Assembly: GCA_041650835.1 (NCBI GenBank)
Contig: JBAZKL010000002.1
Location: forward strand, 270,477 to 334,476
Direction of reading: 5' to 3'
From: Candidatus Omnitrophota bacterium
Lineage (GTDB): Bacteria; Omnitrophota; Gorgyraeia; Gygaellales; Profunditerraquicolaceae
DNA: 64,000 bases
Shown piece after piece: positions 8,253 to 27,244 of this stretch. The notes beneath the pieces are model-generated. The model had not been told where the DNA came from, ran no database searches, and saw only the letters and a list, made by a program, of their open reading frames with translations. Numbering within the stretch: position 1 is the stretch's first letter; each line of letters opens with the position of its first letter. The position numbers and the translations under genes were made by a program.

Positions 8253-8280
8253 TGACAACAAGGGGTTTTCTTTGTATATT
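8253..8280 (+). promoter_or_regulatory. Sigma70-type promoter TTGACA-16-TATATT heading the 8.3-27.2 kb gene block
   Basis: TTGACA 8253-8258 and TATATT 8275-8280 in a 170-bp AT-rich intergenic region that follows 8 kb of packed housekeeping genes. Confidence 0.45.
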
Positions 8281-8316
8281 TATAACTATTCTAAATATGT
8301 CTAAACGAGGTGAACT

Positions 8317-8565
8317 ATGGCTGAAAACTCTAATGAAAACAAACCTATCATGACCACCAAAGAGGTCGCCGAATATTTAAACATTCACCCCTTGACCGTG
8401 AATAAATACGCGAGGGAAGGCAAGATCCCCGCGTTTAAAATAGGCACCGATTGGCGTTTCCACAAAAGTTATATTGAAAATTGGATCAAAGATAAAGTAA
8501 CTCATAATGTCGCGGGAAAAGAGCGAAGGAAGAGTGCGACTGCGGCTTTGAATCCTGAAGGATAA
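8317..8565 (+). CDS. Excisionase-family (MerR-superfamily HTH_17) DNA-binding protein
   Basis: TTKEVAEYLNIHPLTVNKYAREGKIPAFKIGTDWRF is a canonical excisionase-type helix-turn-helix. It is the first gene after the promoter. Confidence 0.6.
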   Translation: MAENSNENKPIMTTKEVAEYLNIHPLTVNKYAREGKIPAFKIGTDWRFHKSYIENWIKDKVTHNVAGKERRKSATAALNPEG

Positions 8566-8567
8566 CC

Positions 8568-9611
8568 ATGAAAACATTTGCCATTCTTTTGAATCCCGCT
8601 ACTATTGTCGAGCTCAAACGCTTACTGCCCGGGGCGCGCTTCCTTCCGAATGCGGCACTCGAATTCTTATTGCGGAAGAACCTCCCGCTTAAAGTAATCA
8701 GGCTTAAAGAAATCACTTCTTCGCGGGGAGAGAAAATCTCCGGATATCTGATCATTTGGCCGGTTTTGAGGAAAACTATCGCTTCGCTTGATAAAGAAAT
8801 AATCAAAGAAAAGATCATTGAAGCGGGTTTGCTCGCGGGGCGCTTAGGTGCCCGGATCATCGGCACCAATGGCTCATACGGGCTTTCTGCCCTGGACTTA
8901 ACGGGCGTCACCCGGAAGATCAAGATACCTTTTACCAGCGGGGAGTCCCTTTTAAGCTGGTCATTCTTTGAGTCTCTTTTTTTATCGACTCAAGAAATTG
9001 GCCTTGAACTCAAAGATGCTTCAATCGCCATAATCGGGGCCAATTCTACGCTCGGCATGCTTTGCGCCCGAAAGCTGGCTACCTGCGCTTTGAACATCAT
9101 ACTCGCGGATACTGACGTAGAAAAACTTAACGCGTTCAAGGAAACGCTTATCTCCCGGAAGGCACAAGAGGATAAACAAAGCTCTCTCACGGTGATCTCA
9201 ACCTATGAACTGCCTCAAAAAGCGGCTCATGCGGATATTTTCATCCCGGTATCCAATGCTGCTTGTGAACAACTTACCCATATCAACTTAAAACCGAAAA
9301 GCATCATTTGCGCTGTTTCTGATTGCCAATATCTCGAAACAATAGCAGCACTCCTCAAAGATGTCACGGTTATAAAAGGCGGCATTATTAAGATGCCGCC
9401 ATCGATTGACCTGGGAGTAGATCTCGGGTTACCCGGCAATTTAATAAACGCAGCGCTTGCCGAGCCGATCTTATTGGCATTTGAAGGTAAAACGGGGACT
9501 TTTTCTCTCGGGGAAGCGACAAATATTAACAGGCTTGAGGATATCGCCGATATCGCTGTTCAATACGGCTTTGAGATCTATAATCCCCTCAAGCAGTCAC
9601 TCGTTCATTAA
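8568..9611 (+). CDS. Acyl-ACP reductase (AAR)-like protein; divergent paralog lacking the putative catalytic Cys
   Basis: Collinear with the cyanobacterial AAR fold: Rossmann segment IAIIGANSTLGMLCARKLA and C-terminal LAFEGKTGTFSLGEATNINRLEDI...GFEIYNP versus AAR ...[23 protein letters not shown]...GFQP. The position matching the AAR C(FAE) cysteine reads AALAEP. Confidence 0.5.
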   Translation: MKTFAILLNPATIVELKRLLPGARFLPNAALEFLLRKNLPLKVIRLKEITSSRGEKISGYLIIWPVLRKTIASLDKEIIKEKIIEAGLLAGRLGARIIGTNGSYGLSALDLTGVTRKIKIPFTSGESLLSWSFFESLFLSTQEIGLELKDASIAIIGANSTLGMLCARKLATCALNIILADTDVEKLNAFKETLISRKAQEDKQSSLTVISTYELPQKAAHADIFIPVSNAACEQLTHINLKPKSIICAVSDCQYLETIAALLKDVTVIKGGIIKMPPSIDLGVDLGLPGNLINAALAEPILLAFEGKTGTFSLGEATNINRLEDIADIAVQYGFEIYNPLKQSLVH

Positions 9612-9626: not shown

Positions 9627-10223
9627 ATGTGGTATAAAATCTTTCGCACGGGATGCATTCTCTTCCTGAAGCTGTTTTTCCGGCTTAAAATAGAAGGCCG
9701 GGAGAATCTGCCCAAAAAGAGCAATTTTATCGTAGTGGCAAATCATTCCAGCTTTATGGATCCGTTTGTCGTCGCGGCGGCCATACCCGCAAAGATCTAT
9801 TGTATCGCTTCCCGCTCATTATACGCGTTCCCTCAGTTAAAATGGGCGCTGCGTAAGCTCGACTGCCTGCCGACAGGCGCATCATCCGAATGCGCCATCG
9901 ACCTTTTAGTTAAGAATAATATCGTAGGATTGTTCCCGGAAGGAGGGATAAGCAGAGACGGTAAATTACGCGATTTTAAACGGGGGGCGGCACTTTTAGC
10001 GATGAAAACCGGCCGGCCGATAGTTCCGTGCGCGATCTCAGGGACTTTCGAAGCGCTTCCCTTAAAAGCGAGATTCCCGCGCCTGGTCCCCATATCGATA
10101 ACCATATGCAAGCCCGTTTTTTTATTAAAAGAGTTCGAGGAAGTCATCGATGATACCGACCTGCAGGAAGGCGTCACGCGGATAAAAAACGCAATAAAGG
10201 AAAAGCTAAATGCAAAACAATGA
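9627..10223 (+). CDS. 1-acyl-sn-glycerol-3-phosphate acyltransferase family (PlsC/LPLAT)
   Basis: H(X)4D motif VVANHSSFMDP, motif III LFPEGGISRDG, and an N-terminal hydrophobic anchor. Confidence 0.75.
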   Translation: MWYKIFRTGCILFLKLFFRLKIEGRENLPKKSNFIVVANHSSFMDPFVVAAAIPAKIYCIASRSLYAFPQLKWALRKLDCLPTGASSECAIDLLVKNNIVGLFPEGGISRDGKLRDFKRGAALLAMKTGRPIVPCAISGTFEALPLKARFPRLVPISITICKPVFLLKEFEEVIDDTDLQEGVTRIKNAIKEKLNAKQ

Positions 10224-11805
10224 TCTCATAGAAATAAGCGTTTCAAAATTGATCCCCGCGAAAAAATGGAGGGTGATCAGGTTATTGACAAAAGTCAATG
10301 AATTCCCCAGCTACATGCCGAATGTCAAAGAAGCGACCGTACTGGAGAAAGTGCATAACACCATCAAAACCAGGTGGAAGATCCAGGTTGACAGCGTGCC
10401 CATCAGCTGGACGGAAGTCGATACGCTCAAGCTTACCCACAACGAGATCTCGTTTCATTCCACGGAAGGGGACCTTCAGGAATTTAAAGGCGCTTGGAAT
10501 TTCCAGGACGACCCGCAAGGGACGATCGTGAGCGTCAATGTTTCGCTTAAGATCGATATTCCCGCGATAAAAGAGTTCGCGGAAAGCTATATAAAAAAGC
10601 TGCTCACTAAAAACTTTGAAGCGATGTTGGAGGCGATCGAAAAGAAGATCATCTCTCTGCGCTACGATAGTTATAAACACGGCAACATTGACAAAGTCGC
10701 CGGATTTGGCATTATCGCTCATCCCTACGATTTCTCTCATTTAGAAAAATGCTTTAAGATGCTCAATCCCGGCTACAGCGTCAGCTCGCCTGAATTTGTC
10801 AGCCAGCTCTTCCATGTCAGCCCATCGTTTAAACTCTATGATATTAACGCTTTTAAATCTCAGACCGGGGAAACCGTGAACGGATCGTTCATGATCGCCA
10901 CCTTTATTCCCGATATGATGGAGAAGGACATCTGGAGCGTATTCTCAAAAGTGGTGCGTGCCTGCAAGATCGCCGAAAAACACGGCATCGGCATTGTCAC
11001 CTTAGGAGGGTTCACTTCTATCGTCGCTGAACGGATCGGGCAGGAGGTCGCCTCCGAGGTAGATATCGCGGTCACCTCGGGAAACACCTTTACGGCGGCA
11101 ATGGCTGTCGACGGGGTTAATAAAGCGGCGGATTTAGTAGGCCTTGATATCGGTAAATCCACTTTAACGATCATAGGCGGCACGGGAGATATCGGAAGCG
11201 CCTGCGCGAGGGTCTTTGCCGGTAAAGTAAAAAACCTTATCATTACCGGCAGGACAAAATCTCATTTAAGTAACCTAAGCGCTGAGCTCAAAAGAACCAA
11301 AAAAGCCCGCGTAACGGCATCACTTGACAATAAAAAAGCGGTTCAAGGAGCCGATATCATCATTGCCGTTGCCAGCGCTACAACACCCATCCTCGAGATC
11401 GATTGGTTTAAACCGGGAGCTCTCGTGTGCGATGTCGGCTATCCGAAGAATATTTCCCATGCTCCGACGCAAAGAAACGATATCTTTGTATTTTCCGGGG
11501 GATTAGCAAAAAGCCCGACTCCGGTGAGCTTTCCCATCGATTTTTCCCTCCCGTCGCCGCAGGTGATCTACGGGTGTTTCGCTGAAGGAATAATCCTAGC
11601 CCTGGAAAAACGCTTTGAGAATTACAGCTTTGGAAGAGGCAATATTACAACGGAAAAAATAGACGAGATACGCGCTTTAGGCAAAAAACACGGTTTTGTT
11701 GTCGCTGATTTTTATTGGGGCGACACCCTCATAGACGCTTCGCTTATAGAAAGGATCCAAAGCATCGTTCATGAAAATAAAACTCATCGCGCCCAAAAGG
11801 CTTGA
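10210..11805 (+). CDS. SRPBCC (START/Coq10-like lipid-binding) domain fused to an acyl-ACP reductase (AAR) domain
   Basis: N-terminal 150 aa has the SRPBCC pattern (…WKIQVDSVPISWTEVDTLK…FQEFKGAWNF). The C-terminal 340 aa aligns along its length with cyanobacterial AAR: LGGFTSIV, GGTGDIGSACARVF, VGYPKN, CFAEGIILALE, SFGRGNITTEKIDEI. Confidence 0.65.
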   Translation: MQNNDLIEISVSKLIPAKKWRVIRLLTKVNEFPSYMPNVKEATVLEKVHNTIKTRWKIQVDSVPISWTEVDTLKLTHNEISFHSTEGDLQEFKGAWNFQDDPQGTIVSVNVSLKIDIPAIKEFAESYIKKLLTKNFEAMLEAIEKKIISLRYDSYKHGNIDKVAGFGIIAHPYDFSHLEKCFKMLNPGYSVSSPEFVSQLFHVSPSFKLYDINAFKSQTGETVNGSFMIATFIPDMMEKDIWSVFSKVVRACKIAEKHGIGIVTLGGFTSIVAERIGQEVASEVDIAVTSGNTFTAAMAVDGVNKAADLVGLDIGKSTLTIIGGTGDIGSACARVFAGKVKNLIITGRTKSHLSNLSAELKRTKKARVTASLDNKKAVQGADIIIAVASATTPILEIDWFKPGALVCDVGYPKNISHAPTQRNDIFVFSGGLAKSPTPVSFPIDFSLPSPQVIYGCFAEGIILALEKRFENYSFGRGNITTEKIDEIRALGKKHGFVVADFYWGDTLIDASLIERIQSIVHENKTHRAQKA

Positions 11806-13234
11806 AACGTGGGATGAAAATTTCTGGGATTTAAGAACACTCTCTCAACTGACGCGCAAATACGCAGGAGGAGCGCCACTGGCGCTCCCCAGCTTAGCGG
11901 CACTGACTCCGAACGATGTTGAAGTAATACTTACCGATGAAAATGTTGAACCGGTCGATTTCGATGAAAAAGTCGACTTAGTAGGGATAACGGGAATGAC
12001 CTGCGTGATCCCGCGCGCCTACGCGATCGCGGATGAGTTCAGGAAAAGAAGGGTCCCGGTCATTATGGGAGGCATACACGCTTCTATGGTGCCGCAGGAA
12101 GCCGCGCAACACTGCGATTCGGTCGTTATCGGAGAAGCAGAAGATATATGGAAGCAGGTAATAGAAGATGCCCAGAAGGGCACTTTGCAAAAAACGTACC
12201 GCGCCCCCGGATTCCCCGACCTCACCCAAGCACCCGTCCCTCGCTGGGACCTCTTGAAAAACGAGCGCTATTGCTATTTCACCGTTCAAACCGGCCGCGG
12301 CTGCCCCTTTGATTGCGAGTTCTGTTCCGTGCAGAAATTCAACGGGAGGAATTACCGCTCCCGGGACATTGACCTGGTTTTAAAAGAAATATCCTTATTA
12401 AAGAGCTTTGATGAAAAAAGGTCGTTTTTCTTTGTCGACGATAATCTACTCGCGAGAAAGGATTACGCGAAAGACCTTTTCACGCGGCTCATTGAGTACC
12501 GGATAAAATGGTGGTGCCAGGCCTCAGTGGACAGCCTCAAAGACGATGAAACACTTACGTTGATGTTCAAATCAGGCTGCAGGGAAATATTCGTCGGCTT
12601 TGAATCAGTGCAGCAAAACAGTTTACGCGCGATGCACAAAACTCACATGAACAAGGCCGATGAATATAAAGACATTATTGCCAAAGCCCACGCTCATGGA
12701 TTATCGATCTTCGGATCATTCATCTTAGGAAGCGACTCTGACAATAGCGCTATTTTCCAAGAAACCCGAGATTTTATCAAAGAAACAAATATGGCTTTCG
12801 CTATGATCAACGTATTAACGCCTCCGCCCGGGACGGCGCTTTATTCGAGGCTGGAAAATGAGCAACGCCTTTTACCGTGCCCCTGGAATCAATACGACGG
12901 AGAACACGTGACCTTTACGCCTCATATCTTATCACTCCAGGAATTACGTGAAAAAAGGATCGAGCTCATAAAGGATCTTTACGCTTACAAAAATTTGTAC
13001 TCGAGGCTTTCACACCTCTGGAGCAAGGGAGTATTCTTACGGGAAAGAGGGCGCAAAGGATTATTTTCTAAAGGACGTATCTTATTTTCTCTCCTCATGA
13101 TCTTTCGCGCTTCCTGGTCCCAAACGGTCTTTACCTGGAAATGCTTATGGAGAAAAAACGCCACATCGGTCATAACAGTTTTACTTGCGATCAGTTTCCA
13201 TGATTATGCGCAGCGCCTTAAGGCAAAAAAATGA
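11771..13234 (+). CDS. B12-binding domain radical SAM protein
   Basis: N-terminal cobalamin-binding Rossmann domain (MKIKLIAP…VDLVGITGMT…MGGIHAS) followed by a radical-SAM CxxxCxxC (GCPFDCEFCS). Overlaps the upstream stop by 35 nt and the downstream start by 4 nt. Confidence 0.8.
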   Translation: MKIKLIAPKRLETWDENFWDLRTLSQLTRKYAGGAPLALPSLAALTPNDVEVILTDENVEPVDFDEKVDLVGITGMTCVIPRAYAIADEFRKRRVPVIMGGIHASMVPQEAAQHCDSVVIGEAEDIWKQVIEDAQKGTLQKTYRAPGFPDLTQAPVPRWDLLKNERYCYFTVQTGRGCPFDCEFCSVQKFNGRNYRSRDIDLVLKEISLLKSFDEKRSFFFVDDNLLARKDYAKDLFTRLIEYRIKWWCQASVDSLKDDETLTLMFKSGCREIFVGFESVQQNSLRAMHKTHMNKADEYKDIIAKAHAHGLSIFGSFILGSDSDNSAIFQETRDFIKETNMAFAMINVLTPPPGTALYSRLENEQRLLPCPWNQYDGEHVTFTPHILSLQELREKRIELIKDLYAYKNLYSRLSHLWSKGVFLRERGRKGLFSKGRILFSLLMIFRASWSQTVFTWKCLWRKNATSVITVLLAISFHDYAQRLKAKK

Positions 13235-15402
13235 ACTATACGTTTAACCTTTATTCGATACCGACATTTTTAACCGCACTTTTTCTTTTCAGCCTGGGTT
13301 TATCCGTTTTTTTACGGGATAAAAGGTCGGATATTAATTTCAGCTTTCTTTTAGTATGTTTATCCGCCACCATTTGGCAGATGGGTTATTCTTTCGTCTA
13401 TTTAAGCGCAGATCAACATACCGCGCGTATTTGGCAGAAATTCGTATATTTCGGGATCCCATTCCTATCCCCCGCGATGTACCACTTTTCAACCGCGTAC
13501 CTTAAACTGAAGCGGCAAAGGAAATATGTCATTTTATCTTATATTTTCGGCGTTTTCTTCCTTGTCATTAACCTTTTTTCGAATTTACTGGTAAGCGATG
13601 TAACGAAATATTTCTGGGGATATTATAAGAAAGCGGGGCCTTTGTACACCATTTTTCTCATTTTCTGGCTCGTCCCGGGAATTTCGACTATTTACAACTT
13701 ATACCGGGAGCGTAAAAAATTTACCAGCCCTCTTGAGCGGGAAAGAAGAAAATACATCTTTATCGCATTTTCCATCGTATTCATCGGATTCTGGGATTTC
13801 ATACCTGCCTATGGGGTTAATATTTATCCCTTTGGTTTTATCGGCGTAGTCGCATGCCTTTCCACGATAGCATACGCCATTGTGAAATACCGTCTTTTGG
13901 ATATTACCGTTGTTATCACGCGCGCGGCAGTATTTTTGGCGGTTTATTCCATAGTATTGGGGATCCCGTTTATTCTTTCCGCGGCACTCAAAGAATGGTT
14001 CATGAGGCACCTGGGCTCAAATTGGTGGATGGGGCCGTTTTCCGCCTTGGTCATCTTAGGTACCGGCGGGCCGTTTGTTTACGTTTACCTTGAAAAAAAG
14101 GCGCAATCGATACTATTACGGGAACAACGCCGTTATCAGGAAATTCTCAAGCATATAGCAGTTGATCTATCCCGGATACGCAATTTACAAAAACTGATCG
14201 ATTATATCGCTCTTACGGTAACCGATGTTGTCCGTATTTCCCACACGATCATATATGTTCATGATGCCAAAAAAGACGTTTTTCTTTTAAAAGCCGGCAC
14301 TCACTTAAAAGATTCCCAGCTGCAGGCGATCGACCGGAAGAATATCCTGATCTCCTGGCTTGAGAAAAAAAAGGAGCCGTTAGTATACGAAGAAATCAAG
14401 CACCGCGCTCATGAAACTGCCGATCCTGACTTTAAGAAGCTGGAAGATCAAATGAGAAAACTCAACGCCGCGGTTATTGTGCCCTGTTTCCTGCAGGAAA
14501 AAATAATGGACTTACTTGTCCTGGGAGAGAAAATCTCGGGAAAGATCTATAATTCAGACGATTTAACGAATTTTTCTTTTTTAGCCAGCGAAGCGGCCCT
14601 GGCAACAGAGAACGCTCAATTATACGGCAAGATCGAGGACGAAGTTAAACAGCGCACCGAAGAATTAGTCGATGTGCAGAAACAGCTTGTTCAAGCCGAA
14701 AAACTGGCTACCGTAGGCACCCTTGCCGGAGGAGTGGCCCATGAGATCAATAACCCGTTAACGGCGATATTGACTAATGTGCAAATACTCCTGATGAGCG
14801 GTGACACTCTGGATACCGATTCAAAAGAATCATTAGAGCTTATAGAAGAAGCAACGAAGCGCTGCCGAAACATTGTTCAAAAACTAATGGCATACGCGAA
14901 GAAGCCGCTGGAGGAGTCAAAGGTCGGCAGGGTATTGATATCCGACATATTAAATAAAGTGCTCGCGTTCTTAGGCTACCAGTTTGAACAAGATAACATA
15001 AAGATAGAAATAGAGGAAAGGGAAAAGAATTGTTTTGTTCTCGGCAACCAGAATGAATTAGAACAAGTACTAACGAATATCCTCATTAATGCCAAAGACG
15101 CTATCATAGGATTTAAAAAAGGCGGGACTATCGCTATTTCAGTAGCCAGAAGCGGCAAATGGATAAAAATCCAGATCAAAGACGAAGGTATCGGTATTCC
15201 CCGTGAGGTCATTCATAAAATATTTGACCCGTTCTTTACCACCAAGGATGTCGGCAAGGGATTAGGCCTCGGTTTATCGATATGCCAATCAATTATTGAA
15301 AAACACAAAGGGTTGGTCACGGTTGAGTCAGAAGTCAATAAAGGGACCATGTTCAACATTTTACTGCCGGATGCCAAAGAGATAAACGCCATTACAATCT
15401 AA
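13231..15402 (+). CDS. Sensor histidine kinase with N-terminal 7TM sensor, GAF-like, HisKA and HATPase_c domains
   Basis: Seven hydrophobic helices in the first 270 aa. Canonical H-box VAHEINNPL. HATPase N/G boxes (…NAKDAI…, GKGLGLGLS). Confidence 0.85.
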   Translation: MNYTFNLYSIPTFLTALFLFSLGLSVFLRDKRSDINFSFLLVCLSATIWQMGYSFVYLSADQHTARIWQKFVYFGIPFLSPAMYHFSTAYLKLKRQRKYVILSYIFGVFFLVINLFSNLLVSDVTKYFWGYYKKAGPLYTIFLIFWLVPGISTIYNLYRERKKFTSPLERERRKYIFIAFSIVFIGFWDFIPAYGVNIYPFGFIGVVACLSTIAYAIVKYRLLDITVVITRAAVFLAVYSIVLGIPFILSAALKEWFMRHLGSNWWMGPFSALVILGTGGPFVYVYLEKKAQSILLREQRRYQEILKHIAVDLSRIRNLQKLIDYIALTVTDVVRISHTIIYVHDAKKDVFLLKAGTHLKDSQLQAIDRKNILISWLEKKKEPLVYEEIKHRAHETADPDFKKLEDQMRKLNAAVIVPCFLQEKIMDLLVLGEKISGKIYNSDDLTNFSFLASEAALATENAQLYGKIEDEVKQRTEELVDVQKQLVQAEKLATVGTLAGGVAHEINNPLTAILTNVQILLMSGDTLDTDSKESLELIEEATKRCRNIVQKLMAYAKKPLEESKVGRVLISDILNKVLAFLGYQFEQDNIKIEIEEREKNCFVLGNQNELEQVLTNILINAKDAIIGFKKGGTIAISVARSGKWIKIQIKDEGIGIPREVIHKIFDPFFTTKDVGKGLGLGLSICQSIIEKHKGLVTVESEVNKGTMFNILLPDAKEINAITI

Positions 15403-15427: not shown

Positions 15428-15802
15428 ATGAGTAAGAATATCCTGGTGATCGATGACGAAGATTTAGTGACGGAAAGCTTAAAACGCCTCCTTAAGAAGC
15501 AAGGGTATTTCGTCGCTGTTGCCGGTAATAACGCGGAAGCCATGAAAAAGATACAAGAACTCGATTTTGACCTCGTGGTATCGGATATACGGATTCCCGA
15601 AGTAAACGGGGTTGAAATTATCAAAAATATAAGGCATTATTATAAGGTATCCCAGAAAAAGCCCATACCGGAGATATTGATCACCGGATACTCCAGTGAT
15701 GAGCATTTGAAAGAGGCGCAGGCACTCAAAGTTGCCGATTATCTCTACAAGCCATTTGATATAAAAGATTTCCTGGAGATAATCAAAAAAAATCTAAAGT
15801 AA
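15428..15802 (+). CDS. Single-domain response regulator (receiver only)
   Basis: ILVIDDE…DLVVSDIRIPEVNG…K receiver motifs with no output domain. Confidence 0.8.
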   Translation: MSKNILVIDDEDLVTESLKRLLKKQGYFVAVAGNNAEAMKKIQELDFDLVVSDIRIPEVNGVEIIKNIRHYYKVSQKKPIPEILITGYSSDEHLKEAQALKVADYLYKPFDIKDFLEIIKKNLK

Positions 15803-16274: not shown

Positions 16275-16281
16275 CGCTTAA

Positions 16282-16695
16282 ATGAAAACATTCAATGCGG
16301 GGTTTGATATCTATTTTGAGGACCTTTCAGCTTCAGGGAAAGTCCATTTGGAAAAGATCGGCGAATGGATGTCCATGACCCGCGAACAGTATTTTAAGTC
16401 TTCCTGCCCTGACCACCTCAAGTTCGTTGAAAGCCCCATACAGATGTTTACCATGGGATTGTCCATTACCGTAACGGGGAGCTCCCGCTGGGCGGATAGG
16501 ATCCAGGCGGTCCTTACGACCGCTAATATCAAAAAAATATCATTTGAAATGCATATAGACTTTAAAAACGAACGCACCGGCAAAGTGATCGCGAAAGGCG
16601 TGCAAAAGGTAGCCTTTGTCGATGTCGTAGCCAAGAAGTTCACTAATATTCCCGACGACATGAAACAGGTGATCATAAACTTTATTAACCCGTAA
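16282..16695 (+). CDS. Hotdog-fold thioesterase-like protein (4HBT family), second copy
   Basis: 137 aa paralog-like neighbour of the preceding gene. Weak assignment. Confidence 0.4.
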   Translation: MKTFNAGFDIYFEDLSASGKVHLEKIGEWMSMTREQYFKSSCPDHLKFVESPIQMFTMGLSITVTGSSRWADRIQAVLTTANIKKISFEMHIDFKNERTGKVIAKGVQKVAFVDVVAKKFTNIPDDMKQVIINFINP

Positions 16696-19623: not shown

Positions 19624-20226
19624 ATGCACAGGTTCCTTACCGAGACAGTTTTTAGCTCTTTATACGGCATCATTACCGTTTTATTTGCCTGTGAACGCAT
19701 GACAGCCACGATATCCGCGGCACGGAAATCCGTAAAACAGCCCCCCCAGTTGCTCACCACTATCCCGTTGCTCACCTACTGCTTATTAGCTTTTGCGGCG
19801 GTCATTGAATATTTCATAGGGAGCAGGGCGCTCAATTACTGGATAAGCGCCTGCGGCTTCGCGATTTTTATGACCGGCATAAAACTTCGTACTGCAGCAA
19901 TTAAAGAATTTGCCGATAACTGGAATATACATATTACTGCCAAGTCCATAAAAAAGATCATAACTTCGGGGCCGTACTGTTTTGTCCGGCACCCGTATTA
20001 TTTAGCAGTCATACTTGAATTAACCGGTTTTTCATTAATTTCCAACTCATATTTTACCCTTACGGCGGTAGCGCTCATCCAACTGCCGCTGCTTTTAATG
20101 CGTATCGATCGGGAAGAAAAAGAGTTAGAAGATAAATTCCCCGGTATATATTTACCTTACAAGAAAACGGTTAACGCTTTATTGCCCGCCCTGCGGGGGC
20201 CGTTGAGGCAGACGAAAGGAAGATGA
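19624..20226 (+). CDS. ICMT/PEMT-family membrane methyltransferase, second copy
   Basis: SGPYCFVRHPYYLAVILE…REEKELEDKF core. Confidence 0.6.
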   Translation: MHRFLTETVFSSLYGIITVLFACERMTATISAARKSVKQPPQLLTTIPLLTYCLLAFAAVIEYFIGSRALNYWISACGFAIFMTGIKLRTAAIKEFADNWNIHITAKSIKKIITSGPYCFVRHPYYLAVILELTGFSLISNSYFTLTAVALIQLPLLLMRIDREEKELEDKFPGIYLPYKKTVNALLPALRGPLRQTKGR

Positions 20227-21266
20227 CCATGCATCAAGTATGCGATCTCATAAAGACTTTAGGAGCCAAGCAGGTAATTGATATTAAGAGGGCTCACGAA
20301 GAGATGTTAAAATATTCGCGCAGTTACATGACGCTCCATTGCATGGTCTGCCTCTTAAACGTCGGCTTCTTCGAAAGCATGGACGCGCAAGGAAAAGTAA
20401 ACTGCGCTGACTTCTCGCGACAGAAGCATTTAGAAAAAGAAATACTGGCTATCCTCTGTGAATACCTTTTTGCCACGCGCATGTTCGGCCGTTCGGGAAA
20501 CGACTATTTTCTAACAAAACAGGGCGCGTATTCGCTTACCTATGCTCAAGGGGCATTTTATTTCATCCACGCGTACGCTCCAATATTCGAGAACCTGGAT
20601 GCGCTGCTCAAAAAACAAAAAGTATACGGAAAAGATATTTTCCGCAGGGAAAGATCTGTTTCTAAAGCAAGCGCGGAAACCGAAAAATGGCTGCCATTCC
20701 CCATCGCCTGCGACATCATCAGGAAATACAAATTTAAAAGAGTGCTGGATCTCGGATGCGGGAGCGCCGAATTCCTCATGAGCCTCTGCAGCCGGGAAAA
20801 AGGGCTGTACGCCTGCGGCATTGATGTCTCCGCGGAATCCATCCAGTATGCCCAAGGCTTGATCAATAAGCGGGGAATGGACAAAAAAATAAGATTACTT
20901 GTTGGAGATATCTTTAAAATTGATACAATAGATGAGGATTTAGGTACTGTCGATGCCATTACCAGCATGTATGTCGTGCATGAGTTTATCGGAGATGACT
21001 TAACAAAAATAACCGAGCTTTTCAAAAAAATCAGGGCCCGATTCAGGGGCGCCTCCGTCATCATCTGCGAGCTCTGCAGGCAGCCCTCGGCACTAATACG
21101 CAAAAACGCTTCCGCTATCGCTGAACATCATCTCTTTCACGCGCTGGCCAAGCAACGCCTTCTCTCCCGGGAAGAGTGGAGGGAATTATTCAAGAAAACT
21201 GGTTATGAGGTCGTTGAAGAACGGCGCTTTGATTTCGCCAGCCAATGTTATTTTGTCTTAAAATAA
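20223..21266 (+). CDS. Class I SAM-dependent methyltransferase (O-methyltransferase-like)
   Basis: Motif I VLDLGCGSAEFL and post-I acidic LLVGDIF, with an N-terminal helical domain like small-molecule O-MT dimerisation domains. Confidence 0.65.
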   Translation: MTMHQVCDLIKTLGAKQVIDIKRAHEEMLKYSRSYMTLHCMVCLLNVGFFESMDAQGKVNCADFSRQKHLEKEILAILCEYLFATRMFGRSGNDYFLTKQGAYSLTYAQGAFYFIHAYAPIFENLDALLKKQKVYGKDIFRRERSVSKASAETEKWLPFPIACDIIRKYKFKRVLDLGCGSAEFLMSLCSREKGLYACGIDVSAESIQYAQGLINKRGMDKKIRLLVGDIFKIDTIDEDLGTVDAITSMYVVHEFIGDDLTKITELFKKIRARFRGASVIICELCRQPSALIRKNASAIAEHHLFHALAKQRLLSREEWRELFKKTGYEVVEERRFDFASQCYFVLK

Positions 21267-21273
21267 AGAAATT

Positions 21274-23454
21274 ATGAACAATTTCGCAATTTCAGCCTTA
21301 TTAACTTCCCTGACCACGTTATTTTTGGCATTATTCGTATTTATCAAGAACCCTAATGCCAAACTAAACAGGATTTTCACGCTTTATTCCTTGTGCATCG
21401 CTGTGTGGAGCTTCTTTGTCTCAATACACGGCTTTACCAGAAGCCAGGCGACATCAATGTTTGCGGCGCACGCCCTGCATATCGGCGCGGCATCTATTCC
21501 CGTCACTTTTGTGCATTTTGTCATGGTATTCCTTAACGATATAATCACCCCGTTCAAAAAATGGCTCCTGCGGCTCATGTATCTCATAGCCTGCGTATCA
21601 GCAACGGCAGGATTTACCCCTTTATTCGTAAAAGAGGTCACTGCCCGGCATAACGTCCTCTATCTCATGAAGCCCGGTGGGGTATGGTACCATCTTTTTG
21701 TATTTTATTTTGCTGCCTGCGTTTCTTACGGTTTATACCGCCTTTTCCTGGAATATATACGCTCAAAAGGCCTGCGGCATAACCAGATGAAATACCTCTT
21801 CTGGAGCTCGCTCTTTGGGTTTATCGGCGGGATCAATAATTTCCTTATCATCTATGATATCGATATATTCCCCTTGAACCCCTACGGCACGTACGCCGTA
21901 CCGCTTTATGTGTGCGTCGCCACCTATGCCATCATCAAATACCGTTTCATGGATATTAAAGTTGCCATAACCCGCACCGGTATTTTTGTGCTTGTTTACA
22001 CTTTTGTTTTAGGGATCCCCTTTGCGGTAGCATTATTGGCGAAATATTGGCTGATCAGCGTATTTAACCTTAATTGGTGGGCGGTCCCCTTGATCTTAAT
22101 GGCGGTTTTAGCGACTGTCGGCCCGTTCATTTATATTTACTTAGAAAGCAAAGCGGAGGGGAGGATCCTCAAAGAACAAAAAAGGTACCAGGACACGTTA
22201 AAACAGGCCTCGATCGGAATGACGCGCATTAGAAGCCTGCGCAGGCTTTTGGACCTGATCACCCACATCATTACCAAAACGGTGAGGATTTCTTTTGCGG
22301 CGATCTATCTTTTTCACGCGGATGAGCAGGAATTCACTTTACAGGTATGCAGGGACAGGGGAAGAGTGCTTACTAAAAAATTACCGGCGAGAAATCCTCT
22401 CTTTACCTGGCTCAACAAAAACAGGCAGCCGCTGGTATATGAAGAAGTAAAGAGGAAAATGCAGGACTTTAATGAACCGGTATACAAAACGCTGGAAGAG
22501 AACATGCGCCTGTTGACCGCGGCAGTCATAATCCCCAGCTTCCTGGAAAACAAGCTTTTAGGCTTTATTGTGCTCGGAGATAAACTTTCCGGCCAAATTT
22601 ACACGCTTGAAGACCTCAATGTTTTCCAGGTCCTTGCCAGCCAGGCAGCCTTAGCCATTGAAAACGCGCAATTCTATGAAGAAGCCAAAGAAATGCAGAG
22701 CCAGATCGCCCAGGCTGAGAAGATGGCTACTATCGGCACTATGGCTGACGGATTGTCGCACCAGATCAATAACCGCTTTTACGCGCTCTCCTTGATCGCG
22801 GGCGACACCATCGATACTATCAAAATGACCGATACTTCAGCCTGCTCCAAAGAAATAAAAGACATGTTTGAACAGATAAACCACGCCCTTGACCGCATCC
22901 AGACCAATGTTTTACAGGGAGGCGAAGTAGTGCGAGGCATCTTAAAATATACCCGTAAAGGAGATGAAGGCTTTGAAGCCCTGACCATGGACCAGATAAT
23001 CGACGGGACTCTCGCTATGGTCCAATACAAAATAAAACTTTCTGAAATAGACTTTGTCCGCGAATACCCGCAAGATCTGGCAAAAATAAAAGGCAACCTC
23101 GTACAGTTAGAAGAAGTATTCTTTAATTTTATCGATAATGCCTATGACGCTATTGTTGAACGCCGCACCATGCTCAAAGAACCGGGCTACAAAGGAAAGC
23201 TCGTCATCCACGCGAGGCGACAAGACAATATTATCCGCATAGAGGTGCAAGACAACGGGATGGGAGTAAAAGAAGAGAACTTGAACAAGCTTTTCGCACC
23301 CTTCTTTACGACAAAAGTATCTTCAAGGAGGGGGACAGGGCTTGGTTTATATGTTATCAACAAGATCATCACTGAGACCCATACTGGAAAGATATTCATA
23401 GAATCCACGCATAAATCGGGCACCCGCTTTATCGTAGAGCTGCCTGCCGCCTAA
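21274..23454 (+). CDS. Sensor histidine kinase, recent paralog of 17429-19621
   Basis: C-terminal 1.1 kb is roughly 90% identical in nucleotide sequence to 18.5-19.6 kb (…QAALAIENAQFYEEAKEMQSQIAQAEKMATIGTMADGLSHQINNRFYALSLIAGDTIDTIKMTD…). The 7TM sensor region has diverged. Confidence 0.75.
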   Translation: MNNFAISALLTSLTTLFLALFVFIKNPNAKLNRIFTLYSLCIAVWSFFVSIHGFTRSQATSMFAAHALHIGAASIPVTFVHFVMVFLNDIITPFKKWLLRLMYLIACVSATAGFTPLFVKEVTARHNVLYLMKPGGVWYHLFVFYFAACVSYGLYRLFLEYIRSKGLRHNQMKYLFWSSLFGFIGGINNFLIIYDIDIFPLNPYGTYAVPLYVCVATYAIIKYRFMDIKVAITRTGIFVLVYTFVLGIPFAVALLAKYWLISVFNLNWWAVPLILMAVLATVGPFIYIYLESKAEGRILKEQKRYQDTLKQASIGMTRIRSLRRLLDLITHIITKTVRISFAAIYLFHADEQEFTLQVCRDRGRVLTKKLPARNPLFTWLNKNRQPLVYEEVKRKMQDFNEPVYKTLEENMRLLTAAVIIPSFLENKLLGFIVLGDKLSGQIYTLEDLNVFQVLASQAALAIENAQFYEEAKEMQSQIAQAEKMATIGTMADGLSHQINNRFYALSLIAGDTIDTIKMTDTSACSKEIKDMFEQINHALDRIQTNVLQGGEVVRGILKYTRKGDEGFEALTMDQIIDGTLAMVQYKIKLSEIDFVREYPQDLAKIKGNLVQLEEVFFNFIDNAYDAIVERRTMLKEPGYKGKLVIHARRQDNIIRIEVQDNGMGVKEENLNKLFAPFFTTKVSSRRGTGLGLYVINKIITETHTGKIFIESTHKSGTRFIVELPAA

Positions 23455-23541
23455 CAGATCAATCCGCTGTATTTTTATTTCAAAAGCCCCCGTTCAAATC
23501 GTCATTGAAAAGAAAAAATATTTTTACTCCGAACTCAAAAA

Positions 23542-23550
23542 TGATATAAT
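23542..23550 (+). promoter_or_regulatory. Extended -10 element TGATATAAT upstream of the DUF2079 gene
   Basis: TG-n-TATAAT at 23542-23550, 79 nt before ATG 23629, in a 170-bp gap after the third kinase. Confidence 0.35.
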
Positions 23551-23628
23551 TGTTCATTGATCCGGAATTTAGCCATGCCGCGTATTACTTTTCGCAATTA
23601 CCGCGGCTTAAAGATATAGATAACACTC

Positions 23629-25542
23629 ATGCCTACTCGGCCGATATCCGATATAAAAGAACGCAGCGTTATTATATTTCTTACCACGAGCGTCATTCTC
23701 TATGTAGCCTTTTTAACCGTTCTTTGTTTCCTCAAATACCGCGCCTTTACGTACTGGGATTTTGACCTTGCGGTTCACTCTCAGATCATGTGGAATATGC
23801 TCCACGGATCACTCGATAGCTCTATTTTAGGGGTAAATTTCTTCGGCAACCACGTCCATCCCGTTTCCTTCTTATTTGCGCCGGTGTACATGCTGTTTCC
23901 GCATCCTCTTACACTCCTGTTCTTACAGTCCTTGGCGTTAGGAGCGGGCGCCTTCCCGCTCTACTATCTGGCAAGGCTGCTGGTTGGCTACCGATGGGCT
24001 TTGGTTATCGCATTACTATACCTTATCAATCCCTTAACGGCATATATTAATTTATACGAATTCCATCCTGTAGCTTTCTCTATCTTTTTCCTGCTCTGCG
24101 CGCTTTATTACTACCAAAAAGGCAATTTCAGGAACTACTTGCTATTTCTCTTACTCTCAATGGCCTGCCAGGAAAATATCGCTCTTGCCGCTATAGCGCT
24201 CGGCTTACACGCGCTCTCCAAACATAAAAGCCGCTCCTGGATAATCACGCCGATACTTTTAGGAACGGCTTATTTTTTACTGTGCATATTCCTCATCATA
24301 CCGCACTGCGCCAAAGGTATAATAGAATTCATTAATATATACAAACATCTCGGCGATTCATATACCGGCATCCTGCTCAAGATCGTTACCCAGCCCGGAG
24401 AAATTTTAAAGATCATGTTCTCCTGGGGGAAACTCAAGTACCTCAATGAGCTTTTCGCGTTGTTCCTGTACCTGCCGCTCTGGTCGCCTTCAAGTCTGTT
24501 TCCGGCGCTTCCTTTTCTTATTCAGCATTTATTATCCATACGGGATTCGGAAACCATGATCATGTTCCATTATACCGCGGAAATGATACCATTTCTTCTT
24601 TTCGCGTATGTCAACGGCTTAAAAAAGGTACTCTCTCAGGAATGGGTTAAAAAGAATAAACCGGCGGCGGCGGCGGCTATATTCTTAACTTCTTTTTTCC
24701 TAAGCGCTCATATGGGGCCGTATATCGGTTTGATAAACAAATATAACATTTACCTGCAAAAAAGCCCGCTCGACCTGGACAAGGAGCTCATCCTGAAGGA
24801 AATCTCACCTCATGAACCCGTAATTGCCACCTTTGAATTCCTGCCGCATCTTACTCACCGTAAATCTCTCTATTCTTTTCATCATTTATATATCGGGGTC
24901 CACACTATGTCGAAAAAGAAATATTATTTACCCCCTGACGCCCGCTCGGCATTGATAGATTTTAACGACCCTCAGACTTTCTACGCTTTTTTCAAGGATA
25001 AACCCGTGTCTACCTTTAACACCTTTATTAACTCTGACGAATGGAAAGCGCAGCGGGTGATCAATAACCTCGTTTTATTTCAAAAGGGAGAGAGCGAAAA
25101 ATACCCGCTTTACGAAATACTCAAAACGAATTCCGAAATTGAAAATAACAACCCCTGCGCGCTTAGCTGTTCAATTGAATTACTGGGACACGGCCCGGTC
25201 AAAATAAATAATACCTGTTTGGACTTTGCCGTATATTGGCGCTCCACGGGAAAAACAAACAAAGACATCGGCGTTTACTATGCCGTCGAAGATGTTGCCG
25301 GGGAAAAATGTTTTTTTAATTTATTTTCTCCGTTATGCTACACGATATTTCCCGCATATTTATGGGAACCCGGCTGTATCATAAAAGAATACAAGTATTT
25401 AAAACTGCCGAACGGCCTGCCGGAGGGAAGGTATAAACTGCTGATCACGTTCATTGACAAAATCACGAACGAAACCATAAAACCGCCGCGCGCGGATCCA
25501 AACGGGATGATCTTGTTAACCGAGTTTACCATTAATGAGTGA
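23629..25542 (+). CDS. DUF2079-family polytopic membrane protein (GT-C-like fold) with a large C-terminal soluble domain
   Basis: About 10 TM helices with the motifs …YRAFTYWDFDLAVHSQIMWN…GVNFFGNHVHP…YMLFPHP…PLYYLAR…, which I recognise as DUF2079. Confidence 0.5.
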   Translation: MPTRPISDIKERSVIIFLTTSVILYVAFLTVLCFLKYRAFTYWDFDLAVHSQIMWNMLHGSLDSSILGVNFFGNHVHPVSFLFAPVYMLFPHPLTLLFLQSLALGAGAFPLYYLARLLVGYRWALVIALLYLINPLTAYINLYEFHPVAFSIFFLLCALYYYQKGNFRNYLLFLLLSMACQENIALAAIALGLHALSKHKSRSWIITPILLGTAYFLLCIFLIIPHCAKGIIEFINIYKHLGDSYTGILLKIVTQPGEILKIMFSWGKLKYLNELFALFLYLPLWSPSSLFPALPFLIQHLLSIRDSETMIMFHYTAEMIPFLLFAYVNGLKKVLSQEWVKKNKPAAAAAIFLTSFFLSAHMGPYIGLINKYNIYLQKSPLDLDKELILKEISPHEPVIATFEFLPHLTHRKSLYSFHHLYIGVHTMSKKKYYLPPDARSALIDFNDPQTFYAFFKDKPVSTFNTFINSDEWKAQRVINNLVLFQKGESEKYPLYEILKTNSEIENNNPCALSCSIELLGHGPVKINNTCLDFAVYWRSTGKTNKDIGVYYAVEDVAGEKCFFNLFSPLCYTIFPAYLWEPGCIIKEYKYLKLPNGLPEGRYKLLITFIDKITNETIKPPRADPNGMILLTEFTINE

Positions 25543-27244
25543 GCATAACGATACGTTCAGCCAGGAGTATGTTTGTTGCAATTTATGCGGCGCCGATAAT
25601 TATACCATCGTCTATAAATCTTACTCCGGGGATATATCGGCGCTCAAGAAGGATTACGCGATAACCGACCACACGCTTGAGCCCCCGCCGCGCCTTGTCA
25701 AATGCCGGCATTGTGATCTTATATATGCTAATCCCCGTCAGCCTGCGCAAGTATTAAGTTCAACCTATAAAAGCATGAGGGACGAAGCTTATATCCAGGA
25801 GGAGAAAGGAAGGCGCTTAGCGGACCGGGCGATCTTGCGGGTACTCAAAAAAATGGGAAAAACAGGCCGGCTGCTGGAAATAGGATGCGCGACCGGGTTT
25901 TTTTTGGACGAAGCGCGAAAATCCGGATGGGAGGTTTACGGCGTGGAATTGTCATCCTGGGCAGTCAGCTATGCTCACGACAACCTTAAAATAGATTCTA
26001 TCTTCGAAAGCTCCTTGCAGGAAAAACGCTTTAACGCCAATTACTTTGACGTTGTTTTAATGAAAGACACTTTAGAACATGTCGTTGACCCCCGGGGGCT
26101 TCTCAATGAATCCAGAAGGATACTGAAAAATAACGGTATCATCTGCATTACTACCCCCGATATAGACAGCCTGATCAGCAGGATATTAAAAGCGCGCTGG
26201 TGGGGGATTAAACAGTACCATATCTATTATTTTACGCGCAAGACTTTATTCGCGATGTTAGGCGCTTGCGGTTTTATCCCGGTTAAGAACAAATCGCATA
26301 CCCGGATATTCAGCCTGCGCTATTGGATCAGCAGATTTAAATCGTATAACCGGTTCCTGCACGACTTTTTTATATTTCTCATTCAACGCCGCATAATACG
26401 CGACGTGTTGTTTCCAGTCGACTTTAAAGACCAGATCGAAGTTTACGCGAAGAAATCACGTAAGCTGGAATACTTGGAAGAGTTGGAAGCACAGCCTGAG
26501 AAAGAACACAGGAACAACCTTAAAACCGTAGTAGTACTGCCCGCGTATAACGCGGCGTTGACCCTCGCTAAGACCGTAGCTGATATTCCCCGTGAAGTTG
26601 TCGATGACATTATCCTTGTCGATGATGCCTCAACCGACCATACCGTTGCAACAGCGCGGCAATTGAAGCTGAAAGTATTTACGCACGAAAAAAACAAAGG
26701 CTACGGAGCAAACCAAAAAACCTGCTATAAAAAGGCTTTAGAACTCGGCGCAGACATTGTCATTATGGTCCACCCTGATTACCAGTACGACCCGAAAGCG
26801 ATCCGCGAGCTCATCACTCCGATAAAACAGGGTAAGGCAGATGCCGTTTTTGGCTCCCGGATGATGAAGGGGGGGGCACTCATCGGCGGCATGCCCCTCT
26901 GGAAGCAGAATGTCAATATAATCCTTACTGCTCTTCTCAATATTTCTTTCAGCACATTTCTTACGGAATATCACTCCGGCTTCAGGGCATATTCGGCAAA
27001 AGCGCTTCATTCGATCCATTACCCCTTAAATAGCGATACTTTCGTTTTTGACACCGAGATCATCGCGCAGATATTACTTCGCGGCCTTAAGATCGAAGAG
27101 ATCCCCATTCGGACCAGGTACTTTGACGAGGCGTCAACGATTAAATTCTTGCCTGCCGTTTTTTACGGCCTCGGGATATTATTAACTATCGGGAAATATA
27201 TTTTACACACGCGTACTTTTATACGCTTCAGACAATTTAAATAA
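25535..27244 (+). CDS. Fusion: class I SAM methyltransferase (N-terminal) and family-2 glycosyltransferase (C-terminal)
   Basis: N-terminal zinc-ribbon-like CCNLCG…CRHC, then MT motif I LLEIGCATGFFL. The C-terminal half carries GT2 signatures VVVLPAYNAALTL…ILVDDASTDHT…. Confidence 0.7.
   Translation: MSEHNDTFSQEYVCCNLCGADNYTIVYKSYSGDISALKKDYAITDHTLEPPPRLVKCRHCDLIYANPRQPAQVLSSTYKSMRDEAYIQEEKGRRLADRAILRVLKKMGKTGRLLEIGCATGFFLDEARKSGWEVYGVELSSWAVSYAHDNLKIDSIFESSLQEKRFNANYFDVVLMKDTLEHVVDPRGLLNESRRILKNNGIICITTPDIDSLISRILKARWWGIKQYHIYYFTRKTLFAMLGACGFIPVKNKSHTRIFSLRYWISRFKSYNRFLHDFFIFLIQRRIIRDVLFPVDFKDQIEVYAKKSRKLEYLEELEAQPEKEHRNNLKTVVVLPAYNAALTLAKTVADIPREVVDDIILVDDASTDHTVATARQLKLKVFTHEKNKGYGANQKTCYKKALELGADIVIMVHPDYQYDPKAIRELITPIKQGKADAVFGSRMMKGGALIGGMPLWKQNVNIILTALLNISFSTFLTEYHSGFRAYSAKALHSIHYPLNSDTFVFDTEIIAQILLRGLKIEEIPIRTRYFDEASTIKFLPAVFYGLGILLTIGKYILHTRTFIRFRQFK

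Follow-up and report, generated by a model that had tools for sequence, protein, structure and literature searches.

What joins the chemistry of fatty-acyl chains to the membrane sensors that are encoded among its genes? This question is raised by a 64-kb stretch of DNA from a Candidatus Omnitrophota bacterium (hereafter the window; positions 270,477 to 334,476 of JBAZKL010000002.1), which sits within an 868-kb contig (ENA ERZ27247363). It carries an array of 16 open reading frames (ORFs; g01 to g16, plus strand, 8317-27244) in which two proteins of the acyl-ACP reductase (AAR; ACP, acyl carrier protein) fold, a PlsC-family acyltransferase, a B12-binding radical-SAM enzyme, thioesterase-like proteins and methyltransferases are interleaved with three histidine kinases that combine seven transmembrane (7TM) helices with a GAF domain. 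Omnitrophota are ultrasmall, often host-dependent or predatory bacteria, uncultured and largely anaerobic, and their physiology has been read almost wholly from genomes. To our knowledge, AAR homologues outside the cyanobacteria have no established role, and we know of no ligand for the HisKA_7TM class of sensors to which these kinases belong. In the literature HisKA_7TM was found only in domain censuses, and our searches returned no paper joining AAR with Omnitrophota, with SRPBCC domains or with ether lipid and radical SAM, and no publication describing this locus.

Comparisons across the phylum strongly support a conserved unit at the heart of this array: g04, in which an AAR-type reductase is fused to an SRPBCC domain, a 7TM-GAF histidine kinase, and a single-domain receiver. 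We hold with about even confidence that the locus would couple the making of a fatty-acyl-derived lipid to its perception, a tailored fatty-aldehyde-derived lipid being sensed in the membrane by the kinase encoded beside its enzymes.

The conserved core and its hypervariable cassette

Relatives of g04 were gathered by scanning one genome per species, which gave at least 96 matches; 80 loci were kept (g04 identity, 42-90%), almost all of them labelled Omnitrophota or mislabelled PVC. We mapped the window proteins onto the ORFs of these 80 loci and used two subsets, 58 loci with enough sequence downstream and 31 with at least 8 kb downstream (full loci). What recurs is a core made up of an HTH_17 protein, PlsC or FadL, the SRPBCC::AAR fusion, an optional enzyme, a 7TM-GAF kinase and a receiver, and the 19-kb array is this conserved five-gene core with lineage-specific additions. 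A kinase lies within about 3 kb downstream of the reductase in 55 of the 58 loci; in 31 loci its start falls less than 100 nt from the reductase stop, often with an overlap of 1-41 nt, and the adjacency stays while the upstream flanks vary from locus to locus. The end of PlsC is likewise less than 100 nt from the reductase start in 50/76 loci, an 11-nt overlap being usual, and an HTH_17 homologue heads the locus in 38/80 genomes. A FadL-type outer-membrane channel replaces PlsC in the deep branches. The original prediction proposed a coupling of lipid enzymes to kinases; that coupling is conserved phylum-wide, is often translational, and is stronger than was proposed.

The same holds for the further kinases of these loci. 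A labelled enzyme gene lies no more than 150 nt upstream of 64 of the 85 full-length 7TM kinases, and a receiver follows directly after 50 of the 85. The enzymes ahead of further kinases include a class-I methyltransferase, GMC plus Fer4, ICMT and, in some loci, aldehyde dehydrogenase. The window itself shows the enzyme-kinase pattern three times: g04/g05 before kinase 1 and its receiver, g10 before kinase 2, and g12/g13 before kinase 3.

Among the 31 full loci we counted kinases in 29, receivers in 27, PlsC in 20 and FadL in 4, KAS in 11 and ACP in 9; the B12-radical-SAM enzyme occurs in 3, the thioesterases in 4, ICMT in 2 and the g13 methyltransferase in 1. The DUF2079 protein, the methyltransferase-GT2 protein and g17 occur in none, a truncated DUF2079 at the edge of L004 falling under the coverage filter. 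Distal modules differ even among relatives at 86-90% identity, and the triad of a receiver and two thioesterases is kept in L003, L004, L020 and L052 only. One conserved 19-kb pathway, as originally envisaged, is not what the full loci contain. Of the genes in that prediction, the PlsC-reductase-kinase-receiver part recurs across the 80 loci and the radical-SAM enzyme in few of them; the thioesterases, the ICMT and other methyltransferases, DUF2079 and the methyltransferase-GT2 protein are confined to the closest relatives. Other neighbours are of lipid or aldehyde type: aldehyde dehydrogenase, GMC, an NAD_binding_4-like SDR, a LuxD-like acyltransferase-methyltransferase fusion, KAS/ACP/FabG, FabA and a GDSL lipase.

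The reductase-kinase-receiver trio persists to about 29% identity, the value for L095, which encodes SRPBCC::AAR, a 7TM-GAF kinase and a receiver-guanylate-cyclase protein. L094 encodes, in order, a 7TM kinase, FadL, SRPBCC and AAR as unfused proteins, a thiamine-pyrophosphate (TPP) enzyme, a second 7TM kinase and a receiver. In L092 (labelled Elusimicrobia; 4211-15585) we found KAS, three B12-radical-SAM genes, a 7TM-GAF kinase, several receivers, a MerR-receiver fusion and an HTH_17-receiver fusion; because this last protein joins the two domain types in one chain, g01 and g07 may work together, in the manner of a Rosetta-stone hint.

Several side features of these relatives were recorded. 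A Y1 transposase separates one pair of the radical-SAM genes of L092. Nucleotidyltransferase/HEPN-like inserts of toxin-antitoxin type sit between kinase and receiver or beside the reductase (L006 6908-7450, L008 15089-15625, L025 1082-1917 and L047 14197-15178); in L006 and L008 the small ORFs (about 180 aa) that part the kinase from its receiver had been considered as HTH-receiver fusions and proved to be such insertions. Giant ORFs run off the locus edge in L094 (12303-13116; 8849 aa) and L091 (5862-13170; 11499 aa).

The slot between reductase and kinase, filled by g05 in the window, is where close relatives diverge. Nucleotide identity to L004 is 76-86% across the locus and drops to 49-62% only within a 1.6-kb cassette with sharp edges, which comprises the C-terminal half of g05 and TM helices 1-6 of kinase 1 (Table 1); a comparison with L003 shows no identity trough. 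At the protein level, g05 and its L004 counterpart are 75-85% identical over residues 1-200 and 27-57% over residues 200-487, and kinase 1 is 30-47% identical over residues 1-200, 62% through a transition at 200-240, and 70-97% from about residue 240 (the last three residues aside). The flanks reach 85-97% identity, with g04 at 86%. This is the localised hypervariability of a signal-receptor cassette of the pherotype type.

Across 59 loci the sensor tracks the slot. At matched reductase distance, the uncorrected 7TM p-distance is 0.72-0.76 where slot types differ versus 0.59-0.69 where they match, and kinase-core distance is identical in both cases. A linear model assigns to a differing slot an extra distance of +0.089 in the 7TM domain, +0.056 in GAF and -0.002 in the core; label permutation gave 0/500 for 7TM, 0/500 for GAF and p = 0.64 for the core. 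Close pairs (reductase distance < 0.25) contain three independent changes of slot enzyme or allele, namely the window and L003 versus L004, L006 versus L008, and L049 versus L061. In each of these cases TM1-6 diverge by 57-72% and the core by 12-21%, and none of nine close pairs without a slot enzyme shows TM1-6 replacement. The kinases had been thought to sense expression of the pathway. That role is possible; a sensor that co-varies with the tailoring enzyme, together with receivers that have no DNA-binding output, favours the sensing of a product or ligand.

Enzymes and sensors of the unit

Profile and structure searches put g04 beside cyanobacterial AAR, as predicted, and not in an unrelated dehydrogenase family. 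Its residues 207-497 align to Synechococcus AAR (PDB 6JZQ; E 9e-40), and it scores 172 bits against the PigE profile and E 3e-28 against PDB 4PPM. It carries the catalytic Cys (Cys456 in YGCFAE; FACFAE with Cys294 in S. elongatus AAR) and a GGTGDIGS NADPH loop; Cys456 and the G-T-G-D-I-G-S loop residues are invariant in 22 g04 orthologues. The AAR superfamily is large (319 representatives at E < 1e-30), and neither g04 (181.3 bits) nor g02 (51.7 bits) reaches the 449.7-bit cutoff of the AAR equivalog TIGR04058. By its sequence, g04 is a catalytically plausible AAR homologue and not an AAR in the strict sense: it has in common with the cyanobacterial enzyme the fold, the catalytic Cys and the GxTGDIGS NADPH loop, but differs in its N-terminal SRPBCC domain, in having a sensor-kinase partner downstream instead of an aldehyde-deformylating oxygenase (ADO), and in its largely anaerobic, uncultured host phylum. 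The second AAR-like protein, g02, shares the fold (23% identity to g04). Ala, Ser or Thr stands where the catalytic Cys would be, and the Gly-rich loop is lost, both in g02 and in all eight orthologues upstream of PlsC. It evolves fast and is probably non-catalytic.

The absence of ADO, already claimed from the sequence, held: no PF11266 match is among the precomputed Pfam calls across the window, and no ADO-like family is among the recurrent neighbours in the 80 loci, where no search was aimed at ADO. With ADO missing from the window and the profile score under the equivalog cutoff, we rejected an AAR-ADO alkane pathway.

The acyltransferase g03 carries HSSFMD (HX4D) and FPEGG motifs, and its best NCBIfam match is the acyl-ACP-phospholipid acyltransferase domain of Aas. 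The slot enzyme g05 reaches the cutoff of no named NCBIfam family, its best matches being HpnJ, PhpK, ApyD and BchE fragments, and its closest solved relative is AprD4 (E 4e-16). Homologues in other phyla mostly stand alone; with no cutoff reached and its homologues mostly solitary, naming the chemistry of g05 from profile or genomic context was rejected. A B12-radical-SAM enzyme fills the slot in only four of the 80 loci (the window, L003, L004 and L016). In other loci it is empty or is taken by a GMC oxidoreductase, by an NAD_binding_4-like SDR/epimerase, by a fusion of SRPBCC, LuxD (Acyl_transf_2) and methyltransferase domains, or by a TPP enzyme (L094). A functional B12-dependent radical-SAM enzyme fits this genome because the window encodes riboswitch-controlled B12 import and salvage. 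The cobalamin riboswitch (Rfam RF00174, 83 bits) lies at 47602-47730, upstream of a B12 import/salvage block (45755-56511) with BtuF-, BtuC- and BtuD-like genes, a CobC-like His_Phos_1 gene, CobU, CobT (DBI_PRT), CobS and a TonB-dependent receptor; CobA/CobO is positioned upstream of the riboswitch.

L003 carries, as the counterpart of the g10 position and directly upstream of kinase 2, a receiver and a 710-aa SRPBCC fusion with a LuxD-type acyl transferase (PF02273) and a class-I methyltransferase (16040-18172). A second copy of this fusion fills the reductase-kinase slot in L061. Its domain order suggests acyl-ACP offloading followed by methylation, with a fatty-acid methyl ester as one conceivable product.

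Each of the three kinases begins with a common region of about 290 residues, in which seven hydrophobic helices are joined by short loops; after it come a GAF-like region, the H-box and HATPase_c. This sensor forms a compact 7TM bundle with a GPCR-like fold and almost no extramembrane loops. Pfam and NCBIfam support HisKA_7TM in all three, and each keeps the H-box His and HATPase_c, so that the three predicted 7TM-GAF kinases are confirmed; Pfam misses the GAF domain of kinase 1, which is assigned from the orthologues of this kinase and from its alignment with the other two. Public calls start kinase 2 at about residue 86 (575 aa) and kinase 3 at about residue 62 (665 aa), cutting TM helices; a three-way alignment, in which kinases 1-3 align from their first residues, backs the ATGs at 17429 and 21274. 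The receiver g07 is canonical (DD at 9-10, D53, K108), and the locus thus combines the classical two-component features, kinase H-box and HATPase_c with a receiver acidic pocket. Its response regulators are without DNA-binding output, being single-domain here and carrying a nucleotide cyclase output in one distant homologue (L095). We also considered membership in the PrsK/exosortase system. The kinases align to PrsK at full length and share with PrsK/PrsR a multi-TM N-terminus, GAF and a kinase domain, but they score 99.8, 86.1 and 99.8 bits against the PrsK profile (TIGR02916), far under its 300-bit cutoff, and no exosortase or PEP-CTERM context was seen at the locus; membership was rejected.

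Layout of the array and its surroundings

The gene inventory and domain calls of the original prediction were borne out by Pfam and NCBIfam throughout, with 16 ORFs in place of 17 (Table 1). Tight junctions had been claimed for the whole array, and 14 of the 15 indeed lie between -35 and +32 nt; the exception is g14-g15, with a gap of 174 nt.

Table 1. Coordinates in the 64-kb window of the array genes, the hypervariable cassette and the promoter-like sites
Feature	Position	Strand	Description
promoter-like site TTGACA-17-TATATT	8252..8280	+	37 nt 5' of g01; 11/12 consensus positions match
g01	8317..8565	+	HTH_17 (excisionase/MerR-like) DNA-binding protein, 82 aa; PF12728, E 8e-16
g02	8568..9611	+	degenerate AAR-fold paralogue; full-length alignment to PigE and AAR
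g03	9627..10223	+	PlsC/LPLAT-family acyltransferase, 198 aa; PF01553, E 1e-26
g04	10210..11805	+	SRPBCC (1-160) fused to AAR-type acyl-thioester reductase (166-531)
g05	11771..13234	+	B12-binding radical-SAM enzyme + DUF4070; Pfam, NCBIfam
hypervariable cassette	12300..13900	+	3' ~900 nt of g05 + first ~650 nt of g06
g06	13231..15402	+	kinase 1: 7TM sensor, (GAF), HisKA, HATPase_c
g07	15428..15802	+	single-domain receiver; PF00072, E 6e-25
g08 + g09	15804..16695	+	two hotdog (4HBT_2) thioesterase-like proteins; Pfam
g10	16728..17429	+	membrane ICMT/PEMT-type methyltransferase 1; PF04140, PF04191; four hydrophobic segments
g11	17429..19621	+	kinase 2 (7TM-GAF-HATPase); Pfam
g12 + g13	19624..21266	+	ICMT/PEMT-type methyltransferase 2, class-I methyltransferase; Pfam, NCBIfam
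g14	21274..23454	+	kinase 3 (7TM-GAF-HATPase), close paralogue of kinase 2
internal promoter-like site TTTACT-16-(TG)TATAAT	23523..23550	+	inside 174-nt g14-g15 gap
g15 + g16	23629..27244	+	DUF2079 polytopic membrane protein (PF09852, E 1e-55); methyltransferase plus GT2

The promoter-like site at the head of the array, judged by its sequence and conservation, is taken as a real promoter. The stretch from the -35 element to the ATG is near-invariant in L003 and L004, although the coding regions there are about 71-90% identical, and TTGACA-N17-(G)TATATT stands at the same distance in the more distant genomes L005, L011, L023, L038 and L058. The prediction of this promoter was therefore sound in substance, with corrections to its start (8252, not 8253) and its spacer (17 nt, not 16). 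A single promoter for the array, and with it the co-transcription of all genes that had been expected, is not established because the 174-nt gap carries a second promoter-like site. Common orientation is useless, and packing weak, as operon evidence here because the whole window is one-stranded, with essentially every called gene on the plus strand and a cumulative GC skew that declines steadily. The gap contains no stable RNA structure relative to shuffled sequences (z = -0.6), and it is not conserved in L004, where it spans only 61 nt. An Rfam scan found no RNA element in the array (8-27 kb), and terminator-like hits there are at shuffle level.

The genes beyond this gap look separate from the core. 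The nearest matches of the GT2 domain of g16 are the polyprenyl-phosphate sugar synthases AglJ and PpgS and dolichyl-P-hexose transferase; g15 gave no PDB sequence hit, and we take DUF2079 to be a member of the GT-C clan. The pair stands behind its own promoter-like site and, apart from the closest relative, shows no synteny with the core. Most likely, on these resemblances, g15 and g16 are an independent pair of polyprenyl-P-sugar synthase and GT-C-like protein. Among the other distal genes, g13 has as its closest solved relatives the alpha-keto-acid C-methyltransferases MrsA and MppJ (E 1e-12).

Downstream of the array lies g17 (27401-28474; 357 aa, with an N-terminal signal or anchor), for which we found no Pfam or NCBIfam match and no counterpart near the core in other genomes. 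The stretch 28642-45227 then opens with a cluster resembling type II secretion and type IV pilus systems (T2SS/T4P; GspE, GspF, pseudopilins, PilM/N and a secretin), which is followed by a receiver and an HD-GYP-type protein. It continues, on the same strand, with further envelope-lipid genes, encoding monogalactosyldiacylglycerol (MGDG) synthase, lipid A acyltransferase, GT2 and PCMT. The window also carries two tRNA genes (60128-60199 and 60255-60328) and a bacterial RNase P RNA of class A (61570-62063; 216 bits).

Mechanism, known systems and alternatives

How might such a unit work? Judging from its motifs, g04 would take an acyl-ACP or another acyl thioester, form an acyl-Cys456 intermediate and reduce it with NADPH to a fatty aldehyde, which its lipid-binding SRPBCC domain might hold or hand over. 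The slot enzyme would turn the aldehyde into a lineage-specific product, the g05 step here being perhaps a B12-dependent radical methylation or rearrangement. Kinase 1, co-translated with these enzymes, would bind the tailored product or a close derivative within the bilayer through its 7TM domain and phosphorylate the single-domain receiver, with output through the HTH_17 protein at the operon head, through protein partners, or both. The part of PlsC (FadL in deep branches) is the least clear step: it may supply, esterify or move the lipid. The 19 kb of the window would then amount to this core, two more modules, specific to the lineage, of methyltransferase and 7TM-GAF kinase, the thioesterase pair, and the g15-g16 glycosylation pair. 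More tentatively still, the tailored fatty-aldehyde product might be the direct intramembrane ligand of a GPCR-fold 7TM-GAF kinase, its enzyme and the sensor helices being swapped as one cassette, a form of Omnitrophota lipid signalling that we rate as possible but doubtful.

Several known systems share parts of this design, and the locus belongs in full to none of PigE/KecF, ElbD, Phc/Cqs/Lqs, ComQXPA/agr or AAR. The AAR-like (COG5322) domains of PigE and KecF, which are predicted to free acyl chains from their carrier as aldehydes in bacteria other than cyanobacteria (PMC6498172), are of the same domain family as g04, but theirs are fused to a pyridoxal-phosphate (PLP) aminotransferase in pigment or alkaloid clusters, whereas g04 is fused to SRPBCC and has no aminotransferase. 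ElbD of the elb locus in Myxococcus xanthus, where an aldehyde was detected as an intermediate of ether-lipid synthesis (PMC9131029), likewise pairs a fatty-acyl reductase with an AGPAT/PlsC-type acyltransferase, and its NAD-epimerase-type partner ElbE resembles the slot SDR of some relatives. ElbD is, however, a single multidomain protein with a FAR/NAD_binding_4 reductase of another fold, an acyl-CoA synthetase and an ACP, without a kinase link; the array has its reductase and acyltransferase as separate genes and no AMP-binding or PP-binding domain, and the window has no FAD_binding_4/AGPS or PlsA/PlsR-type protein for an ether-forming step. On these grounds (a different reductase fold, no acyl-CoA synthetase or ACP, no ether-forming enzyme) we rejected membership in the ElbD type.

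The logic of enzyme, membrane kinase and regulator is also that of lipid-signal quorum sensing, in which CqsA-CqsS and LqsA-LqsS-LqsR are comparable operons. In the PhcB-PhcS-PhcR/Q system of Ralstonia, the enzyme making a fatty-acyl-derived small molecule is encoded beside a sensing polytopic kinase and response regulators (PMC8578825). The Phc, Cqs and Lqs systems differ from our locus in using class-I methyltransferase or PLP synthases and unrelated sensor domains, in their restriction to Proteobacteria, and in that their signals are known. A parallel to the cassette is pherotype polymorphism. The agrBDCA groups of Staphylococcus are one case, their hypervariable segment reaching from the signal-modifying enzyme into the sensor part of agrC, as it does into that of comP in ComQXPA. 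Polymorphism of ComQXPA is documented in Bacillus (PMC4008528). ComQXPA and agr have, like our locus, a hypervariable modifying enzyme and membrane sensor with a conserved kinase core and regulator. Their signals are cassette-encoded modified peptides, whereas our locus shows no evident peptide gene and has lipid-acting enzymes, and ours is a comparison among species-level genomes, not strains.

A number of points weigh against the coupling of lipid synthesis to lipid perception. Its components are known here from genes alone. PlsC-type acyltransferases usually build membrane lipids, and g04, at 62-66% identity across much of the phylum, looks housekeeping-like rather than like a diversifying signal synthase. 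Kinase 3 and its upstream methyltransferases show no cassette, all three domains of kinase 3 being 83-89% identical to its L004 orthologue (7TM, 89%). Only three independent events underlie the co-variation, the uncorrected p-distances approach saturation, the permutation test ignores phylogeny, and the taxon labels of metagenome-assembled genomes may be wrong. Finally, the enzymes can work without the sensor, because two loci lack a kinase: that of a Desulfobacterales genome (SRPBCC, GMC/Fer4, AAR, an acyl-AMP ligase, ACP and radical SAM) and L087 (PlsC, the reductase fusion, radical SAM and a second PlsC). As proof of spread across phyla, L087, which is labelled 'Elusimicrobiota', was rejected; an Omnitrophota genome has a reductase 77% identical to its own, and a wrong bin label or a recent transfer is possible.

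An alternative is that a two-component system controls the remodelling of envelope lipids, as DesK/Des or PmrCAB do. PlsC, the reductase and the tailoring enzymes would then make or alter a structural lipid of the membrane; the kinases would sense a bulk membrane property or an external cue, and the enzymes would be their co-operonic regulated targets. The translational coupling of PlsC to the reductase in most lineages, the second PlsC in L087, L026 and L034, and the envelope-type functions of the ICMT/PEMT-type methyltransferases, MGDG synthase, GT2 and DUF2079 all suit such a role, as do the high, phylum-wide conservation of g04 beside housekeeping genes, the HTH_17 regulator that opens the locus after its conserved promoter, and the existence of kinase-free versions. 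Bulk sensing, however, leaves unexplained why a change of tailoring enzyme brings a replacement of TM1-6 and leaves GAF and the kinase core conserved; receivers that are single-domain or cyclase-linked are not the DNA-binding regulators that it calls for, and the tailoring enzyme is more variable than a conserved structural lipid would lead one to expect. We regard remodelling as a serious but minority possibility. The original prediction, in which one 19-kb single-promoter operon serves a single ether- or wax-lipid pathway, followed by methylation and glycosylation, with expression sensed by the three kinases, we now think improbable. In its favour are the close packing of 16 genes in one direction after a strong, conserved promoter, a pairing of reductase and AGPAT-type acyltransferase that resembles ElbD in Myxococcus ether-lipid synthesis (PMC9131029), and the NAD-epimerase-type SDR that follows the reductase in some relatives as elbE follows elbD. 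Against it, only the core recurs (radical SAM, thioesterases, ICMT and g13 each in 1-4 of the 31 full loci), a promoter-like site precedes DUF2079, the one-stranded window weakens the evidence of strand and packing, and relatives at 86-90% differ in their modules. AGPS-like, PlsA/R-like and wax-synthase genes are not present, and the ether or wax product thus finds no direct support.

Could the core instead be a secondary-metabolite cluster of fatty-acid or polyketide type, in which a chain leaves its carrier as an aldehyde through the AAR-like domain and the kinases are merely pathway-specific regulators? Release of this kind by COG5322/AAR-like domains is predicted in the prodigiosin and koreenceine pathways (PMC6498172), dedicated KAS, ACP, FabG and FabA genes flank the core in 11/31 loci, and an acyl-AMP ligase and ACP stand beside the Desulfobacterales homologue; but the array has no KAS, ACP, aminotransferase or export genes, and spread through a phylum at 60-90% identity is unusual for such a cluster. 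We give this explanation little credence in the form stated, and it overlaps with our preferred one if the metabolite is the kinase ligand. Least probable is adjacency without functional coupling, the kinases serving a separate network such as that of the neighbouring type II secretion and type IV pilus genes. PilT- or PilB-like genes do lie near the locus in about 15 relatives, the T2SS/T4P cluster follows the array in the window, and PilZ-methyltransferase genes and multiple receivers suggest a behavioural network. Reductase and kinase nonetheless remain neighbours from 90% down to 29% identity despite changing flanks, the end of the one gene often overlaps the start of the next, and changes in the sensor domain go with changes in the enzyme.

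What the coupling of a lipid-tailoring enzyme to a co-encoded sensor means depends on the product. If the tailored product is the direct ligand and its enzyme is swapped together with the sensor helices, Omnitrophota would possess a lipid counterpart of the peptide pherotypes, and bacterial signals would gain a new chemical class in which a means of diversifying specificity is inherent. If the product is a structural lipid, the locus would identify a phylum-specific envelope-lipid pathway together with its regulator. With sensor helices that are exchanged along with the neighbouring tailoring enzyme, the reductase-kinase-receiver unit offers a testable entry to the role of AAR homologues, to the ligand of HisKA_7TM sensors and to the physiology of the Omnitrophota.

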